A DNA stretch of 64,000 nt. Source: Escherichia phage alia. The stretch lies in the sequence record NC_052655.1. One strand, written 5' to 3'. Numbering within the stretch: position 1 is the first letter of the stretch; every line of letters starts with the position of its first letter. This document shows positions 42,819 to 57,940 of the stretch, in pieces. The position numbers and the translations under genes are program-made. Under the pieces are notes generated by a model, which did no database searches, had not been told where the DNA came from, and saw nothing but the letters and a program-made list of their open reading frames with translations.

Positions 42819-44216
42819 ATGACAGCACCAAAATCATGGGAACAATATAAAGAAGAATTAACACCCCTTGCTAAAAATCACAATATTCAAATCCTGGGTT
42901 ATGTTGGGGAATGGAAAGGGAGCAAGACTAAACTTAAACTATCTTGCCCTGATCATGGAGAGTGGGAAAGTACCGTAATCACTAACTTTAAAACTAGAGG
43001 CGGTAAATGTTGCCCCGATTGCAATGGTCATAGAAAAGTAACAGAAGAAAAGGAATGTATTTCCCTTGTTGATGTTGCTAAAGAAAGAGGGTTTACTTTT
43101 ATAGGTCTTGCCGAGGAGTGGCGAGGTGTACGAACAAAAATTCGCATAATTTGCCCTAAACATGGAGAGTGGAACACCACAAATATTATTAGTTTTAGGA
43201 ATGGACATGGTTGTCCGACATGTGCAAGTAATAAGCCGTTAACATGGGAAACAGAATTACCGATCTTGGAAGAGATAGCACAGAAGAAGGGGTATCAAGT
43301 GTTAGGGTACGTTGGAGAATGGAAAAGAAATAAAACAAAACTTGATTTGTTGTGTCATTGTGGTTATAAATGGGATACTACAAGTATTAACAGTTTTAAA
43401 CGTGGTAGTGGTTGTCCTTTATGTGGGTATAAGAATACAGGTAAGTCACAAACAATATCCGACGATCAACATATTGCAGATTTCTTTTCTACTGGTGTCT
43501 TCCCTGAAGGCACTATCTTCACTAACACAGGAGCACGGGGGAAAGGATGTGGGCATATTATCTGGATGGTTGAATGTCCTGTTTGCTCTCATGATGAATA
43601 TGTTCAAGCAGGTGTTTGCGATGGTAAATTTTACTCTAAAGGATATAACCTTAAACGAGGACACATGCCGTGTCGTTGTGGAAACTATCATTATACAGAA
43701 GACCAGATCACCTACAAAGTGAGAAAGGAAGTAGAGAGTAAAGGGTATATTTGGGTAGGATGGATCAGTAAACCTAGTGCAAAAGGCAAGTTTAAATATT
43801 GGTGCAATAAACACGGGGAGCAAATTGGAAATGCTGATAGTTTGATACATAGGGGAGCTGGGTGTCCACAGTGTGCTGGTCATAGTCAACAGCAATTATA
43901 TATTAATATTGTTAAAGATAATGATATTATAGTTGCTCTTAAGTTTGGTATAGCTAAAGATAGCGATAGACGATTAAACCGTCAAAATAACCATAATATG
44001 TTTTTTATGGAGCGTATTTGTTTATATGATTTTAGTACAACGAAACAGTGTAAGGCTGCTGAAAGAGCTATAAAGAAAAAATTAAAAACTGGTATCTTAA
44101 CAGCAAGAGAGTTGAAAGACGGTTATACAGAAACAGTAAGTGTTTCTGATTTGGAAAATCTTCAAAAAATTATTACACAATATGGTGGCAAATTAGTATA
44201 TAGTAAGGAGGTGTAA
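42819..44216 (+). CDS. Zn-ribbon repeat protein, possible GIY-YIG/T5orf172-like C-terminal domain
   Basis: Four to five tandem ~45-aa repeats of the form 'GYVGEWKG.KTKL.L.CP.HGEW......F..G.GCP.C'; C-terminus 'ALKFGIAKDSDRRLNRQ'; GAGGAG RBS. Confidence 0.45.
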   Translation: MTAPKSWEQYKEELTPLAKNHNIQILGYVGEWKGSKTKLKLSCPDHGEWESTVITNFKTRGGKCCPDCNGHRKVTEEKECISLVDVAKERGFTFIGLAEEWRGVRTKIRIICPKHGEWNTTNIISFRNGHGCPTCASNKPLTWETELPILEEIAQKKGYQVLGYVGEWKRNKTKLDLLCHCGYKWDTTSINSFKRGSGCPLCGYKNTGKSQTISDDQHIADFFSTGVFPEGTIFTNTGARGKGCGHIIWMVECPVCSHDEYVQAGVCDGKFYSKGYNLKRGHMPCRCGNYHYTEDQITYKVRKEVESKGYIWVGWISKPSAKGKFKYWCNKHGEQIGNADSLIHRGAGCPQCAGHSQQQLYINIVKDNDIIVALKFGIAKDSDRRLNRQNNHNMFFMERICLYDFSTTKQCKAAERAIKKKLKTGILTARELKDGYTETVSVSDLENLQKIITQYGGKLVYSKEV

Positions 44217-44768
44217 ATGCGGATTACTGACAAGTATGTATTCTTCTTCTCAGCAAAAGATGAATTTAGCAACTGGTATCTATCATCTTTTATTGAACCT
44301 TTAGCACCCAAGTATAATAATTCTATTACAAATTCTGTTGAATTTACTTGTGTGGAACAATATATGATGTGGAGAAAAGCATGTTTATTTTATGATTACA
44401 ACATTGCATCCTCTATTTTAACCGGAGATCTAAGATATACAGGAGAAAAAGAACAAGCATATTATAAACGACTAGGCAGATTAGTTAAAGATTATGATGA
44501 AGATACCTGGACTTCTTTACGGGAGAAGATTGTCAAGCGTGGTTTGTATCTTAAATACACACAAAATGAAGATCTCAAAAATAAACTTATCGCTTACGCA
44601 GATAAGGAGTTTGTAGAAGCAAGCCCTTATGATTCTATTTATGGTATCAAAATGGGGATGTGGGATCGGGACGTGGAAAATAAGGATTGTTGGAAAGGAC
44701 AAAATCTTTTAGGAAAATGGCATACAGACCTTGCTGTTTATCTAAAAGCACAATCTGATATTTCCTGA
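44217..44768 (+). CDS. NADAR/YbiA-family protein
   Basis: 'FFFSAKDEFSNWYLS', 'EQYMMWRKACLF', 'LGRLVKDYDEDTW', 'KYTQNEDLKNKLI', 'FVEASPYDSIYGIKMG' follow the YbiA/DUF1768 pattern. Confidence 0.65.
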   Translation: MRITDKYVFFFSAKDEFSNWYLSSFIEPLAPKYNNSITNSVEFTCVEQYMMWRKACLFYDYNIASSILTGDLRYTGEKEQAYYKRLGRLVKDYDEDTWTSLREKIVKRGLYLKYTQNEDLKNKLIAYADKEFVEASPYDSIYGIKMGMWDRDVENKDCWKGQNLLGKWHTDLAVYLKAQSDIS

Positions 44769-44983
44769 TATTTTGAAAATTTTTATTTCTATAAAAAGGG
44801 GTGTGGGTTTCATGTACGGAAATTCACCCTCTGCACAGTATATCCAGAGTAAGTAGTATTCTGTACTCTGTTAATAAAGTATTTAATTTGTTTGTTGGAT
44901 TATGGTAGCTGATCTTTAAAAGGCATACTATCTCTTAACTACTACTTATAACAGAACAGTAAAATCGTTTTTATAAAAAGGAC

Positions 44984-45191
44984 AAAATTATTTAAAGTTT
45001 TTACAGATTTTTGGATACAAATTTTGAAAATGAAAAGTTCAAGTTTGGTCAAAATTATTTAAAGTTTTTGTACGTATTTCTATCCAGATTTTGAAAATGA
45101 AAACTTCAATTTTTTAAAAATTCCCCAGTTTATTTAAAGTTTTTTTGCCTTTTTCCGTAGAAAAATCAAAAATGAAAAGTTCAATTTCGTG
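44984..45191. repeat. three tandem ~67-bp direct repeats
   Basis: Units starting near 44984, 45051 and 45129, each '(A)AAATTATTTAAAGTTTTT-(N20-30)-GAAAATGAAAA(G/C)TTCAA'; AT-rich, non-coding. Confidence 0.7.
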
Positions 45192-45208
45192 TTTTTATAG
45201 GTATGCGT

Positions 45209-45319
45209 ATGATAATCATTCTCATTTGTAAATGAGAATCATTATCATTTAATTATGTAAGTGATAATCATTCTCAGTAAGAGAATGAGAATCATTAGCA
45301 AATGAGAATTTTCTCATTT
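45209..45319. promoter_or_regulatory. cluster of three Fur-box-like palindromes
   Basis: 'TGATAATCATTCTCATTTG-TA-AATGAGAATCATTATCA', 'GATAATCATTCTCA...GAGAATGAGAATCATTA' and 'AATGAGAA-TT-TTCTCATT'; core GATAATCATT matches the Fur-box half-site. Confidence 0.45.
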
Positions 45320-45580
45320 AGAGAATAACGCGCAGGGGCGGTGTTTGTCTCGCGCTCCCGTGTCCCCTCGCCATACAATAAGAATAGCATAACCAACAAC
45401 AAAAGCAAGCGATTATTTTTATCTTTACATTTCTTTACAAATTTATTTTAGACGAGCTACCGGCGATCAACCTTCCAACCAGTGCCCCCTGGTATGTTAG
45501 CCCCGCCTTTACGCCGTGGGGGTGGCGCTTCCTCTTCTGTATGTAAAACAGTATAAGCCCGATCCCTGGGCTTGTCAAGA

Positions 45581-45847
45581 TTATTTTTTGTTTTCTTGCC
45601 AGGATAGGACACCTAACCAAAAATACATGTCGCCCCGCGCCCCTGGCGGGATCTTGCTTTCCCCGCCGCCACTGCAAGCCCATAGATAACCATTAGCGAA
45701 CGGATCAAAATGATCTATTTCTTCCACCTTATAATCGCCCAGGTTGAGAACGGTTTCAACCTTTAAGCCCGTTGCGCTTGCTACCTGGTGCACCGTGCCG
45801 CCTTGCCAGCCCAATGAGTGCATGAGATGTAAAGGAGTATTTGTCAT
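45581..45847 (-). CDS. candidate small ORF inside a GC-rich island
   Basis: 88-aa ORF ('MTNTPLHLMHSLGWQGGTVHQV...') in a clearly more GC-rich stretch (about 45330-46100); several overlapping minus-strand ORFs make the coding call uncertain. Confidence 0.3.
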   Translation of the reverse strand: MTNTPLHLMHSLGWQGGTVHQVASATGLKVETVLNLGDYKVEEIDHFDPFANGYLWACSGGGESKIPPGARGDMYFWLGVLSWQENKK

Positions 45848-46217
45848 GGTATCGCCCTTTCTTTGATGTGCGCCCTGGTTGGCGCGGTAGAAAGATAATA
45901 GCCGTTTCCTTTATAGATAGCAAGCAAAAAAGAAATGAAAAAAGATTAAAAAAATGGTTGACGTTCCTCACCTGGTAGCGTAGTATTCATCTTGTCGAGG
46001 GGGGCGAGGCACAACGACAATAAACAAAAGGAGGGCGCAATGTAGGACGGGCAAAGGTGAGGATCTCCACAATCCACCGTCACAATAACATTACTTATAA
46101 AAGGTTGATAACGATGATCAAGAAAGAAAACAGCTTGACGGTTGGAACGATTAACGCTATCATTCTTGCCGTTCCATTTTGGGTTGTAGTAGCGGTTATT
46201 ATTTTTAAAAAATATTC

Positions 46218-46275
46218 TTGACAACGTTTTTTAATCTGATAAGATGTATCACATAGGGCGGCAATAGTGCCGCTC
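46218..46275 (+). promoter_or_regulatory. promoter + 5' stem-loop module
   Basis: TTGACA-N16-TAAGAT followed by 'CACATAGGGCGGCAATAGTGCCGCTC' (stem GCGGCA/TGCCGC), 22 nt upstream of the ATG. Confidence 0.6.
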
Positions 46276-46658: not shown

Positions 46659-47021
46659 ATGAGCAAGCAAATCAATACTATCATGTTAAACCTGGTATCT
46701 TTCCGCGACGACGTGAAAAATCTTCCACGTGATGCAGTGGATGCACGGATCGAAAGCTATCGCTCACAGATCGCAACGCTACCGCTAAAACGTGATCAAC
46801 ATGCCGCTAATATGATGCTTAATGCTATGCTTAAAAAGATGATTCAATGTGATCTTACTCTGGCTTATGAATATGCTGGCGATCTTTTTGTAACATATAA
46901 CAAGCCCGTTCCAGGTATGAGCACCACGGAAGAATTGCATGCCTTAAATCTGCGACAAGATGCATGGGATAACATGCGCCGTGTTATGGTATGGGTAGAA
47001 AGCGGTAAAATTTACGAATAA
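46659..47021 (+). CDS. hypothetical small protein (cassette gene)
   Basis: 120 aa; RBS AAAGGG. Confidence 0.5.
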   Translation: MSKQINTIMLNLVSFRDDVKNLPRDAVDARIESYRSQIATLPLKRDQHAANMMLNAMLKKMIQCDLTLAYEYAGDLFVTYNKPVPGMSTTEELHALNLRQDAWDNMRRVMVWVESGKIYE

Positions 47022-47248: not shown

Positions 47249-47521
47249 TTGTTTTTTCTAAAAGTTTTTGATAATGTGATCGCTTTTGAACATGCTGCAA
47301 CGTTCAACCTGGCGAGATACGCTATCAGGTTTAAAGATAATGTTTATCCCCGTGCTGGTGGCGGTTACACTATCTTTAATCATCGTAACGCTCAATTAAC
47401 GGATATAACGAATCCAGATCCTGGAGTGTATCGCATAGGTTGGCTACCGTCAAAAGACGCGGCAAGCATGTTTAAGGTGTGTAAACTACTAACAGAAGAG
47501 GCGAACGAACATGGGGCGTGA
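47249..47521 (+). CDS. hypothetical small protein
   Basis: 90 aa, TTG start, GGAGGA RBS 8 nt upstream. Confidence 0.45.
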   Translation: MFFLKVFDNVIAFEHAATFNLARYAIRFKDNVYPRAGGGYTIFNHRNAQLTDITNPDPGVYRIGWLPSKDAASMFKVCKLLTEEANEHGA

Positions 47522-48065
47522 ATATGTGATCCAGTCCTGGGTAAAGCATGATGCTGATGATCCGCGCATAATACCAGATGACATGATCGATCACATGGTA
47601 GGGTATAGCGGGGAGCAGATAGGAAATCGAGCGGCAAAGAGCAACGGCAACACAAAGGCGCGATCCGTTCGCCCTGGTTGGCTGGCAAATGGTAACGCTG
47701 ACATTGCAAGCGCCGCAGATCCAAGCGATGACGCTAAAACTAATCCCTTATACAGCATTGATCCGGCTTTTAAGGTGTTAGAAGAGTATCCCGCTAAATT
47801 AGCCGCACTAGATAAGGCATACGAAGAAAAGCGCATGGCATGGACTGTATACAACACCGCTAAAATGGTGCTAGATGCAAAATTGATTAAAGCCCAGGAG
47901 AAGATCAATAAACTTGTTACCATAGTGCAAGAGGAAGACCAGGACGACCAGGAGGAAGAGGAAGAAATCATGCCTAACCTGGAAGAGGAAGAGATCCAGC
48001 CATACATGCCGACGGAAGAGGAAAAAAGACAAGCCCTAAAAAATTATGAAAATTGTCTTGTGTAA
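47511..48065 (+). CDS. hypothetical protein with acidic low-complexity tail
   Basis: 184 aa; 'QEEDQDDQEEEEEIMPNLEEEEIQ'. Confidence 0.5.
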   Translation: MGREYVIQSWVKHDADDPRIIPDDMIDHMVGYSGEQIGNRAAKSNGNTKARSVRPGWLANGNADIASAADPSDDAKTNPLYSIDPAFKVLEEYPAKLAALDKAYEEKRMAWTVYNTAKMVLDAKLIKAQEKINKLVTIVQEEDQDDQEEEEEIMPNLEEEEIQPYMPTEEEKRQALKNYENCLV

Positions 48066-56162: not shown

Positions 56163-56364
56163 ACCTAAATAAAGATGATAGCTTTTACCTATCAAAAACG
56201 TTCACCGAAAAAAGTGAATAGATCGCGGTATCGAGCTAATCAAGGAGCAGATGAACAACCATACCATGAAGATCATAAGGCGCTTACAGCGTGTTTTAGA
56301 CCGCTTATTTTTAATTTCTTCATGTAACTATCTGGCAAAAACAGCCTTTTTCTTGTCTTTCCTC

Positions 56365-56445
56365 TTAAATGATAATCATTCTTATTTATAGCTGATTATT
56401 TATGCAATAAACTGCATAATGCAATAATGATAATCATTCTTAACT
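56365..56445. promoter_or_regulatory. Fur-box-like repeats
   Basis: Two copies of 'AATGATAATCATTCTTA' separated by about 40 nt. Confidence 0.4.
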
Positions 56446-56819
56446 TAAGACCATCTAACTTATAAAATAATAAGTTATCTAACTAAATTAAAGCTAATTA
56501 TCTTACTTTTATTTATAACATACTGTTACTATCTTATTGATAACCTTATATTAAACAACAATAATCAATGTAAATCATTACTAAGCTAACTATAATCTAT
56601 CTAACCCTTAAAACTACAATTATAATCTATCAAATTGTTGCACAAAGTAACTATTAAATTGTTAGTAACATTGCTAAATAATTAATATCCTATCTATTTA
56701 TGATCTAATCTTTACCTCCCTATCTATTACCTAAATAACCATTTCATGTGGTAATCATTTCATACAATAACTATAACAAGAAATATAATTCGCAAGCGTA
56801 TCATTAGCAGCCTATGCCG

Positions 56820-56985
56820 GACACATAGGCGGCTAATAATAACGCAACTACACACCCCACATAATAACCATCACCGATAGTTATTATTTGTGCTTATGTA
56901 GCTTGCAACAATTGCAAGCGCAACAATATACATGGTATATTGTATCCCTTACATTGTTGCGGTGCGTTATTATTAGCTAATGTTT
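56820..56985. repeat. inverted repeats around a TTGCAA-caa-TTGCAA palindrome
   Basis: 'GCTAATAATAACGCA' with its reverse complement 'GCGTTATTATTAGC' about 130 nt away; central 'GCTTGCAA-caa-TTGCAAGC'; hairpin 'GCCTATG-ccggaca-CATAGGC'. Confidence 0.5.
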
Positions 56986-57282
56986 AGAACATTGGCTATA
57001 ATATAAGCTAAGTAATAAGCTAGTCAATAATAAACATAATGAATAATGACATTAATGATCATAATGCGCCACCCTCCAGGGGGCGCTATGTGAACACAAA
57101 GAAATCATTCTTGTCAAGAAAAATATCACCCTATTGCGCAAAATTATTTATATCTGAATAGATGATTTTTCATACTATTGCCCCCTATAACATACCTCAT
57201 TTGTTGAGCCTACTTTCTTAAAAGCGCAATAAAGTAGAATTATCTTGATTTTTAGTCGGTTTTATAGTACAGAAAGTATGCA

Positions 57283-57298
57283 AATGATAATCATTATC
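57283..57298. promoter_or_regulatory. near-consensus Fur box
   Basis: 'AATGATAATCATTATC' matches 16 of 19 positions of GATAATGATAATCATTATC. Confidence 0.45.
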
Positions 57299-57462
57299 AG
57301 CTATCCTCCAGGGTGGCACTATTTCACGCCAGATCATTTCATTTGGCAAGGTGTATATAGATGTTTAGAAATGCCAAGCCATTGATTTACTTAGAATTTA
57401 TCTGTTTTGTTGTGAGTAGTACCTTTCTTGCTTAGAAAATAATCAAAAGTCTTATAAGTCAT

Positions 57463-57498
57463 TGAATGATAATGCAAATGATAATTATTCTCATTGAT
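57463..57498. promoter_or_regulatory. Fur-box-like hexamer array
   Basis: 'TGAATGATAATGCAAATGATAATTATTCTCATTGAT'. Confidence 0.4.
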
Positions 57499-57940
57499 AT
57501 TTGAGGGGGACGGTCGGCAGAAATCGGGGGGCGCTGAAAATCGCGTTAAGCACCTCTCGCAAGCGAGCAGTATTTTGCGGCAAGTTATTGATATTATTGA
57601 CTTTACGCTTATGAAAAGGGGTGTGTCGAAATAAATCGGGTATACCGGAAAATTTTTTGTGGCATAGATATTTATTTGTCTATATTATGTACAAAGGGGT
57701 GTGTTAAAAATAATAGGTATATATAGAATAATTGATAGGGAAATCCTATACTAAATCCTTCATTAATGATGTTCCTATGTTGCTGTTCTTGTAACAGATG
57801 AAAAGACGCTGTATGATGTGTAGCATGAGACGTAAATTTATAAGATGCAAATAATGCTTGCATTGAATAGAAATGTCTGTACACTGTGTTCCATAAGATA
57901 TGCAATATCGCGCATAACAAACTACTAATGAGAGGTGTAA

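Follow-up and report, generated by a model that had tools for sequence, protein, structure and literature searches.

The 64,000-nt stretch of Escherichia phage alia analysed here (record NC_052655.1; hereafter the window, in whose coordinates positions are given) contains a segment of about 770 bp, 45330–46100, that is richer in G+C than the DNA around it. What accounts for this GC-rich island? The initial annotation proposed horizontally acquired DNA (a moron) or a structured non-coding RNA. We favour, at a probability of about 0.55, a reading of the sequence in which the island would be the GC-rich half of a conserved, leftward-transcribed and mostly non-coding control region. This region would combine a small protein-coding gene, gp224, with a stand-alone putative non-coding RNA gene, and might be linked to a replication origin.

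The compositional contrast is confirmed. The GC content of the island is 47.6%, against a mean of 37.7% for the window, and the highest GC peak of the 64 kb falls inside it at every sliding-window size tried (200, 300, 400, and 771 nt), reaching 55.5% at 45482–45681. The 47.6% of the whole island lies outside the normal variance of the 64 kb (z = 3.8; 0.04% of equal-length windows are as GC-rich). The contrast is sharpened by the left flank, because 44900–45300, at 22–25% GC, is the most AT-rich DNA nearby. The island is extreme, yet not unique in kind; another peak, of 53%, occurs at 47500–47800, within a 184-aa open reading frame (ORF) at 47511–48065. The product of this ORF has a highly acidic C-terminal part (EEDQDDQEEEEE), and the GC content of the ORF, 47%, is the second-highest among genes in this part of the window.

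The island amounts to a single GC-rich gene together with invariant segments and RNA helices that are rich in G+C. A GC-rich hairpin (45372–45330) forms its left edge. At its right edge (45848–46100), promoters diverge toward gp224 and toward plus-strand early genes, and both directions have GC-rich leader hairpins.

A conserved RNA-like element beside gp224

The non-coding part of the island contains a conserved core of about 93 nt at 45450–45542, detected as a single copy in the window by a covariance model built from 22 copies and run with filters off. In a megablast search, 44800–46300 matches 144 phage records, 51 of which cover most of the query at 96–98% identity. These records come from Justusliebigvirus (phi92-like Escherichia phages of the Stephanstirmvirinae) and from related phages, and the window itself is assigned to a phi92-like Justusliebigvirus. 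A sensitive blastn search with 45330–45960 matches 237 phage records, and the number of records with the element is put at about 238. The distant carriers, which belong to the Vequintavirinae, infect Klebsiella, Proteus, Cronobacter, Pectobacterium, Salmonella, Erwinia, Serratia, and Raoultella. In these phages, the alignment is confined to approximately 45422–45547, at 82–87% identity, the flanking DNA is not alignable, and there is usually no annotated feature beneath the match. A two-block pattern scan of metagenomes adds 20 copies, many of them on contigs of 145–152 kb, bringing the total to 44 distinct sequences; two scans of IMG/VR with other conserved blocks add one new homolog. Across the two subfamilies, the core of 93–95 nt is nearly invariant. 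It is among the most constrained sequences in these genomes, in which the surrounding genes diverge beyond DNA alignment. Matches to an invariant 15-mer in bacterial genomes, 120 in number, are chance matches, none of which is a full homolog.

The element is unannotated in the records inspected and missing from Rfam 15, whereas gp224 is already annotated. A literature search, in which papers in subscription journals were thinly covered, finds no mention of the element, of its invariant sequence, or of Fur boxes in these phages. Two copies, about 750 bp from each other, are present in Raoultella phage Ro1 (locus L079, 7033–7128 and 6295–6384). One is of the common type, with its 3' end replaced by unrelated sequence that contains an ORF start; the other belongs to a variant class, which we call type B, and is followed by the normal downstream module.

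Sequence variation among the copies indicates that the element is not protein-coding. In 10 of 27 copies, the difference in length is not a multiple of three, a 1-nt insertion or deletion in the first loop being one example, and the ORFs that overlap the element match no protein family. The promoter that precedes the element is conserved in position more than in letters. Matches to 9–12 of the 12 sigma70 consensus positions end 3–7 nt before the core in 32 of 33 distinct homologous loci, and the opposite side averages 6.2 of 12. All promoter calls in this work are consensus matches. The promoter spacers vary in sequence among lineages, and in 32 of the 33 loci the spacer contains a GC-rich hairpin. 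Thus arranged, the terminator of the upstream gene appears to be embedded in the spacer of the putative RNA promoter, an unusually compact terminator-in-promoter design.

The fold model comprises a purine-rich 5' tail, a stem P1 (CGCC/GGCG) whose CCCC loop would form a pseudoknot with a downstream GGGG, a long-range stem P2 (GGC/GCC), and an internal hairpin P3 (45496–45472). In a plain MAFFT alignment, 93% of the cells at paired positions are paired, compared with 23–50% when the partners are slid by one to three columns. A model-based alignment of the 44 sequences gives 91.6% compared with 23–47%; the MAFFT result is the fairer control, because the model-based alignment leans toward the model. 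The covariation score of the 44 sequences is reached by none of 500 shuffles. In P3, seven of the nine pairs are changed on both sides, for example A-U and G-C in 26 and 17 sequences. P3 also undergoes whole-stem replacement (for example GCAGGCCC...GGGCTGC), and its loop varies in length. The alignment therefore supports one helix, P3, by compensatory changes, and the other predicted helices are invariant or partly supported. The proposal of a structured non-coding RNA in the initial annotation is accordingly supported in kind, by an RNA-like element with a conserved promoter and covariation-supported pairing, and has to be corrected in place, since the element lies beside the 88-aa ORF and not within it.

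Known RNA identities do not apply. ARAGORN detects no tRNA or tmRNA in the whole window. Rfam 15 returns no hit in the window at gathering thresholds, and looser scans, of the element at E ≤ 5 and of six diverged loci at E ≤ 1, likewise give nothing. Therefore, tRNA, tmRNA, and Rfam family identities are rejected, since the scans are empty, including the permissive ones of the six diverged versions. Tandem Repeats Finder and a repeat finder report no tandem repeats in 45330–45580. The pseudo-ToxI of phage phiTE is rejected as well; its locus (106,714–106,772 in phiTE) is 67 kb away from the homolog of the element (approximately 39.7 kb), and the core does not contain the tandem repeats of about 36 nt.

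gp224 and the source of the GC excess

Four overlapping minus-strand ORFs occupy this part of the island: 45435–45683 (82 aa), 45457–45612 (51 aa), 45581–45847 (88 aa), and 45756–45971 (71 aa). The initial annotation singled out the 88-aa ORF as the most protein-like, and rightly, for it is the sole one with homologs and coding behaviour. It is 95% identical to gp224 of phi92 and matches PHROG 19316 (phrog_19316) over its full length. In phi92, gp224 is annotated as a 'hypothetical protein' and is the lone minus-strand gene amid a plus-strand block, within a region of about 1.5 kb otherwise free of annotated genes. Homologs of comparable length fall into 21 clusters, the most distant at about 40% identity; an exhaustive profile search extends the count to 201 clusters, and 150 records carry the protein. 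In a codon alignment of ten diverged copies, differences number 1329 at third positions compared with 753 and 542 at the others, and the frame stays open. AlphaFold2 returns a confident five-helix model (predicted local distance difference test, pLDDT, 94; predicted template modelling score, pTM, 0.87). The 88-aa ORF is a genuine, conserved protein-coding gene.

The gp224 protein has no Pfam or PADLOC family and no significant fold or sequence match in the PDB, and in the viral structure library BFVD it matches its own relatives only. Its invariant N-terminal segment, LGWQGGTVHQVAxATGLxVxTILxL (TVHQVASATGLKVETILNL), looks like a helix-turn-helix as judged from the sequence and the predicted model. 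Comparison with XRE and repressor proteins gives best E values of 0.8–9, PDB profiles give E ≥ 0.16, and there is no Pfam hit. Profile matches in proteins of more than 1000 aa are leucine-rich-repeat artefacts.

The putative leader of gp224, a promoter-like site followed by a hairpin and the start codon (Table 1), has a layout that recurs at the plus-strand early gene at 46659. The idea that gp224 always accompanies the RNA, or that it binds the palindromes described below, is rejected, as a gene of this family lies upstream on the same strand in just 12 of 27 copies. Mydovirus and Seunavirus phages have an unrelated ORF of 60–69 aa in the gp224 slot upstream of the RNA (hhalign probability 0.3%).

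Could the island be a recently acquired foreign moron cassette that carries gp224 and reflects the composition of its donor? In composition, gp224 is atypical. It has the highest GC content (50%) of the 82 ORFs of at least 80 aa in the window, and the codon-usage check agrees, with a GC content at third codon positions (GC3) of 0.52 compared with a mean of 0.32 (z = 2.9). Like a moron, this lone minus-strand gene has its own promoter-like site (45923–45895) and hairpin terminator (45573–45555), both at consensus level, and its slot is filled by an unrelated small ORF in other genera. Unlike a moron, it is not variably present among close relatives; gp224 occurs in all near relatives, and the slot differs at the genus level only. 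More than 110 related phages share the whole island at 93–99%, and conservation of the RNA core extends over two subfamilies. Host-derived DNA is rejected, as a blastn search with 45300–46100 finds no match in 5,426 complete E. coli genomes.

The GC content of the homologs bears on the same question. It is 45–53% in every carrier, including copies that are 42–72% identical in amino acid sequence and reside in equally AT-rich genomes; in Av-05, for example, the homolog has 48% GC compared with 37% for the rest of the locus. Because diverged homologs in AT-rich genomes share it, the GC excess of gp224 is old and maintained, and recent acquisition of the gene is not supported by these sequences. 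In addition, about half of the GC signal of the island comes from the non-coding element and the hairpins. We therefore consider the foreign cassette very improbable, and horizontal acquisition, the other proposal of the initial annotation, mostly unsupported. A weak cassette-like flavour remains in the top GC content of gp224 and in the unrelated ORF that takes its slot in Mydovirus and Seunavirus.

Recent foreign origin is thus not supported as the cause of the GC excess. The excess is attributed to selection that keeps G+C-rich helices and invariant segments in an AT-rich genome, together with a gene that has GC-rich codons in all relatives. In an AT-rich phage, a GC island can be the sign of RNA helices under selective constraint, not of foreign DNA.

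The downstream module and candidate functions

The element is followed by a module whose order is the same in all lineages examined, across two subfamilies: promoter, RNA, a pair of TGTAAAGA motifs, a second promoter with a GC-rich hairpin, palindromes, and three repeats. The second leftward promoter reads TTGCAA-17-TATATT in most relatives. The hairpin that follows is built around GAGACAAACACC, a motif unique in the window, and its outer stem shows an A-U/G-C exchange and many G-U pairs across 17 lineages. As judged from these sequences, this hairpin could act as a leaky terminator for the RNA, open a second transcript as its 5' hairpin, or do both.

The palindromes extend beyond the left end of the island. 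Four of them, beside the element, match the E. coli Fur box (GATAATGATAATCATTATC) at 15–16 of 19 positions; the sites at 45228–45246 and 45281–45299 have three mismatches to the 19-bp box, and two more sites have four. The window contains five sites with at most three mismatches to the Fur consensus, compared with none expected, and 14 strand-hits of the phage form of the palindrome, compared with 0.47 expected. Over all loci, Fur-like sites are 100-fold denser beside the element than elsewhere. In many lineages, the best site is four or more mismatches from the Fur consensus. The conservation of the palindromes beside the RNA in phages of many Enterobacterales suggests binding by host Fur or by a phage regulator with a similar site. 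Fur-like sites of the window form clusters at 45207–45320, 56368–56444, and 57280–57495, the best being GCAAATGATAATCATTATC at 57280–57298, with two mismatches.

Beyond the palindromes, the three regularly spaced direct repeats next to DNA of 22–25% GC resemble those of an iteron-type origin. Repeats of 40–72 bp are present at the corresponding site of BIS47, PVP-SE1, CR3, nepoznato, Kashira, pEp_SNUABM_01, and SSBI34. Six of these seven lineages have three repeats, spaced 63–78 bp apart, and nepoznato has two or three of 72 bp. They are located at 1094–1294 in BIS47 (locus L004), 1209–1417 in PVP-SE1 (L006), and 1043–1252 in nepoznato (L384), and in the loci of further lineages at 1087–1267 (L005), 1033–1211 (L378), 921–1136 (L379), and 1018–1218 (L381). 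The repeats of different lineages share the motifs TTTTSAAAA and AAAAATTTTT. In several lineages, each repeat unit contains pairs of GATC, which are missing from the repeats of the window. GenBank records place 'hypothetical protein' ORFs over the repeats, namely BIS47_205 (L004, 978–1322) and PVP-SE1 gene 202 (L006, 1139–1423), and GAP31_043A (L380, 1040–1321) occupies the same region downstream of the element, with a poor ribosome-binding site noted in the record itself. These three small ORFs are probably spurious.

The RNA most likely works together with the adjoining region, because the palindromes and the three repeats always follow in the same order beside AT-rich DNA. In the mechanism that we propose for the control region, gp224, with its own promoter-like site, leader hairpin, and terminator, would be the first component. 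Host RNA polymerase would make the RNA early in infection from the sigma70 promoter. The core of about 93 nt would fold into a small hairpin and an internal hairpin nested in a long-range helix, possibly with a pseudoknot, and the transcript might end at the GC-rich hairpin at about 45330, for a total of about 215 nt. The RNA would then be the structured 5' part of a leftward transcript that enters an iteron-type origin as an activator or primer, and the palindromes would act as a protein-controlled gate. The rV5 genome paper leaves room for such an origin; skew analysis did not locate the origin of that phage, and the paper shows a 'non-coding' box free of ORFs (PMC3606486). This box may correspond to the present region. 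What the sequences show directly is a conserved, promoter-preceded, non-coding element with pairing in P3 and a fixed order of the module. Expression of the RNA, the ends of its transcript, and its role in replication are what we infer from the sequence here, and we give the origin-linked activator or primer mechanism about one chance in three.

Several observations weigh against this proposal. As to the fold, the shuffle controls overstate significance, the sequences being related, and P1 and the CGCC/GGCG segments are invariant and thus carry no covariation information. The long-range P2 helix is missing in the ten type B variants. In these variants the loop reads CCAA and faces TTGG (six variants), CTGG or GTGG (three), or GGGG (one), which limits full complementarity of the pseudoknot to six of the ten. 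Its support is partial, because the type B partners only partly match the loop. The folding energy is like that of shuffled sequence (z = −0.32 for the core and +0.36 for 221 nt). Wobble pairs (nine G-U compared with seven A-C) indicate no strand, and it is therefore the promoter that designates the minus strand as the functional one. As to the transcript and the origin, a canonical intrinsic terminator is missing; the 45330–45372 hairpin is followed by a poor U-tract and is not listed by the terminator scan. No initiator gene is identified near the repeats, the GC skew tracks the direction of transcription, and synteny with the repeats is no proof of functional coupling.

The structured element could instead be a trans-acting small RNA, made early, with target mRNAs, the ribosome, or a protein of host or phage as its binding partner and independent of the palindromes and repeats, and the shared location would then reflect just a common early non-coding region. 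Its strong promoter of its own and the fact that no ORF lies downstream of it in any lineage are consistent with this possibility. So are the long invariant, unpaired, purine-rich segments (ACAGRAG.., GGAAGGU, and AUCGCCGGUAG), which suit recognition by protein or RNA better than mere priming. These segments further contain GGA and Shine-Dalgarno-like motifs, the 5' tail of the element is similar to the regions where ribosomes bind nearby early genes, and phage Ro1 has two copies. This explanation, however, leaves the invariable order with the palindromes and three repeats in two subfamilies unexplained, no target or partner is identified, and there is no clear terminator or Hfq-type 3' end. 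We regard a trans-acting RNA as a tentative alternative, almost as likely as the origin mechanism; the remaining alternatives, including the foreign cassette, are less likely.

One of these is that the block acts as DNA, serving an origin, packaging site, or transcription control region through sites bound by proteins or through a hairpin or cruciform, so that the apparent RNA structure would reflect a constraint on single-stranded DNA or on protein recognition. Extreme conservation even in unpaired parts, wobble counts that favour neither strand, unremarkable thermodynamic stability, and the adjoining palindromes and iteron-like repeats would all fit. In contrast, 32 of 33 lineages have, ahead of the block, a promoter that varies in sequence and keeps its place and strand, the internal hairpin is wholly replaced yet paired, with a loop of varying length, as is typical of RNA helices, and the second hairpin has many G-U pairs in the same sense. 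A DNA-level element is thus unlikely.

The put sites of phage HK022 are cis-acting antitermination RNA sites that modify RNA polymerase. By analogy, the element could be a processive antitermination RNA that lets polymerase read through the downstream hairpin and bound proteins, as the start of the conserved, putatively structured RNA lies near +1 of a strong promoter, with terminator-like hairpins and protein-binding palindromes downstream. There are, however, no downstream genes that need antitermination, and the likeness to put is a general resemblance; we consider this role highly improbable.

To return to the origin-linked control region, a more specific form of it would make the RNA, palindromes, and repeats together the origin or early switch of rV5-, PVP-SE1-, and phi92-like phages, with host Fur gating a primer or activator RNA. 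As a sequence-based conjecture, this form is distinctly unlikely. If it were true, phage DNA replication would be tuned to the iron status of the infected cell. The Fur-like sites in any case raise a possible link between host iron regulation and a virulent phage.

Neighbouring features and known systems

The features of the locus are listed in Table 1.

Table 1 Features of the GC-rich island and the adjoining module, in window coordinates
Feature	Position	Strand	Basis
Three AT-rich iteron-like direct repeats of about 70 bp, spacing 67 and 75 bp	44968–45187		Repeat search
Array of at least four Fur-box-like palindromes (AATGAGAATNATTMTCATT), beyond the coordinates of the initial annotation	45207–45320		Consensus matching
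GC-rich hairpin around invariant GAGACAAACACC, then UUAUUCUC	45330–45372	−	Outer-stem covariation; present in the minimum-free-energy fold
Putative second leftward promoter, TTGCTT-16-TATTCT	45381–45408	−	Conserved hexamers, variable spacer
Pair of TGTAAAGA motifs with a distance of 11 nt, shortly before the second promoter	45422–45440	−	Nearly invariant in the alignment; unique in the window
Conserved structured RNA-like core, about 93 nt, 60% GC	45450–45542	−	Covariance model, 102 bits, E = 9e-30
Putative RNA promoter, TTGACA-17-TATACT, near-consensus sigma70, 2 nt after the gp224 stop codon	45550–45578	−	11/12 match
Hairpin AAGCCCAGGGAUCGGGCUU, terminator-like and assigned to gp224, within the spacer of the putative RNA promoter	45555–45573	−	Terminator scan
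gp224-family gene, 88 aa, five-helix predicted protein	45581–45847	−	Annotation, homologs, codon pattern, AlphaFold2
Putative GC-rich hairpin of the gp224 5' untranslated region (GCGCCAACCAGGGCGC), then AUCAAAGAAAGGG and ATG	45870–45885	−	Read from the sequence
Putative gp224 promoter-like site, TTGCTA-17-TATTAT	45895–45923	−	Consensus scan, 9/12, weak match
Rightward sigma70-type promoter, TTGACG-17-TAGTAT, which would serve downstream plus-strand early genes	45958–45986	+	Consensus scan, 9/12

The rightward promoter is followed by a 5' hairpin (TTGTCG...CGACAA) and then by a Shine-Dalgarno sequence and an ATG-TAG start-stop at 46040. The strong Shine-Dalgarno AAGGAGG and the ATG TAG mini-ORF, at 46028–46045, precede a small membrane-peptide-like ORF at 46057–46221 (or from the ATG at 46115). 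On the other side of the island, plus-strand upstream genes (42819–44768) encode a 465-aa endonuclease, with five CapR-homology repeats and a T5orf172 domain, and a NADAR-domain protein. The phi92 counterpart of the endonuclease gene (gp222) differs in length and therefore suggests a mobile endonuclease. Farther away, 56300–57700 is a second large non-coding region, very rich in A+T (about 30% GC). It contains Fur-box-like sites, promoter-like sequences, and a number of GC hairpins, and might serve as a further control region or be close to a genome end.

Five records with the locus, of 146–151 kb, are labelled 'Campylobacter phage' (MG065639, MG065645, MG065650, MG065656, and MG065689). These host labels look doubtful, because the locus is 93–97% identical to that of E. 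coli phi92- and phAPEC8-like phages.

The rV5-, PVP-SE1-, phAPEC8-, and phi92-like myophages have a broad host range, are widely isolated, and are used in therapy and biocontrol, and their early region is mostly unannotated. The element, missing from annotations and from Rfam, offers a concrete target for functional work, and the small 'hypothetical' ORFs over the neighbouring repeats in several GenBank records can be flagged as probably spurious.

Among known systems, the comparison is simplest for the 88-aa ORF, which is the same protein as phi92 gp224 and PHROG 19316, with no difference. The palindromes share the 15–16 of 19 positions given above with the E. coli Fur box, and all carrier phages infect Enterobacterales. 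Unlike the E. coli box, they have a consensus of their own (AATGAGAATNATTMTCATT), and the likeness is one of sequence only.

The T7 primary origin and T4 oriF and oriG combine a promoter with an unwinding element, and RNA II of ColE1 is a primer RNA that needs a specific fold. In these systems, a host- or phage-type promoter directs transcription into very AT-rich DNA, and what functions is the transcript, not a protein made from it. Similarly, the promoters described here point into palindromes, three repeats, and a segment of 22–25% GC. Unlike them, the present region has no RNase H or primer site and no initiator identified, and it has no sequence similarity to them. The T7, T4, and ColE1 origins in turn have no near-invariant structured RNA of 93 nt, no Fur-box-like array, and no set of three 70-bp repeats.

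The element can also be compared with phage small RNAs, namely pseudo-ToxI of phiTE, C4 of P1 and P7, the CI RNA of P4, OOP of lambda, and the pRNA of phi29. Unlike these, its core contains no tandem repeats, is not antisense to a gene, and has no Rfam match. Pectobacterium phage phiTE, whose pseudo-ToxI escape locus lies at 106.7 kb (PMC3475682), carries the present element too. Like those small RNAs, the element is predicted to be a short non-coding phage RNA with its own promoter and a conserved fold.

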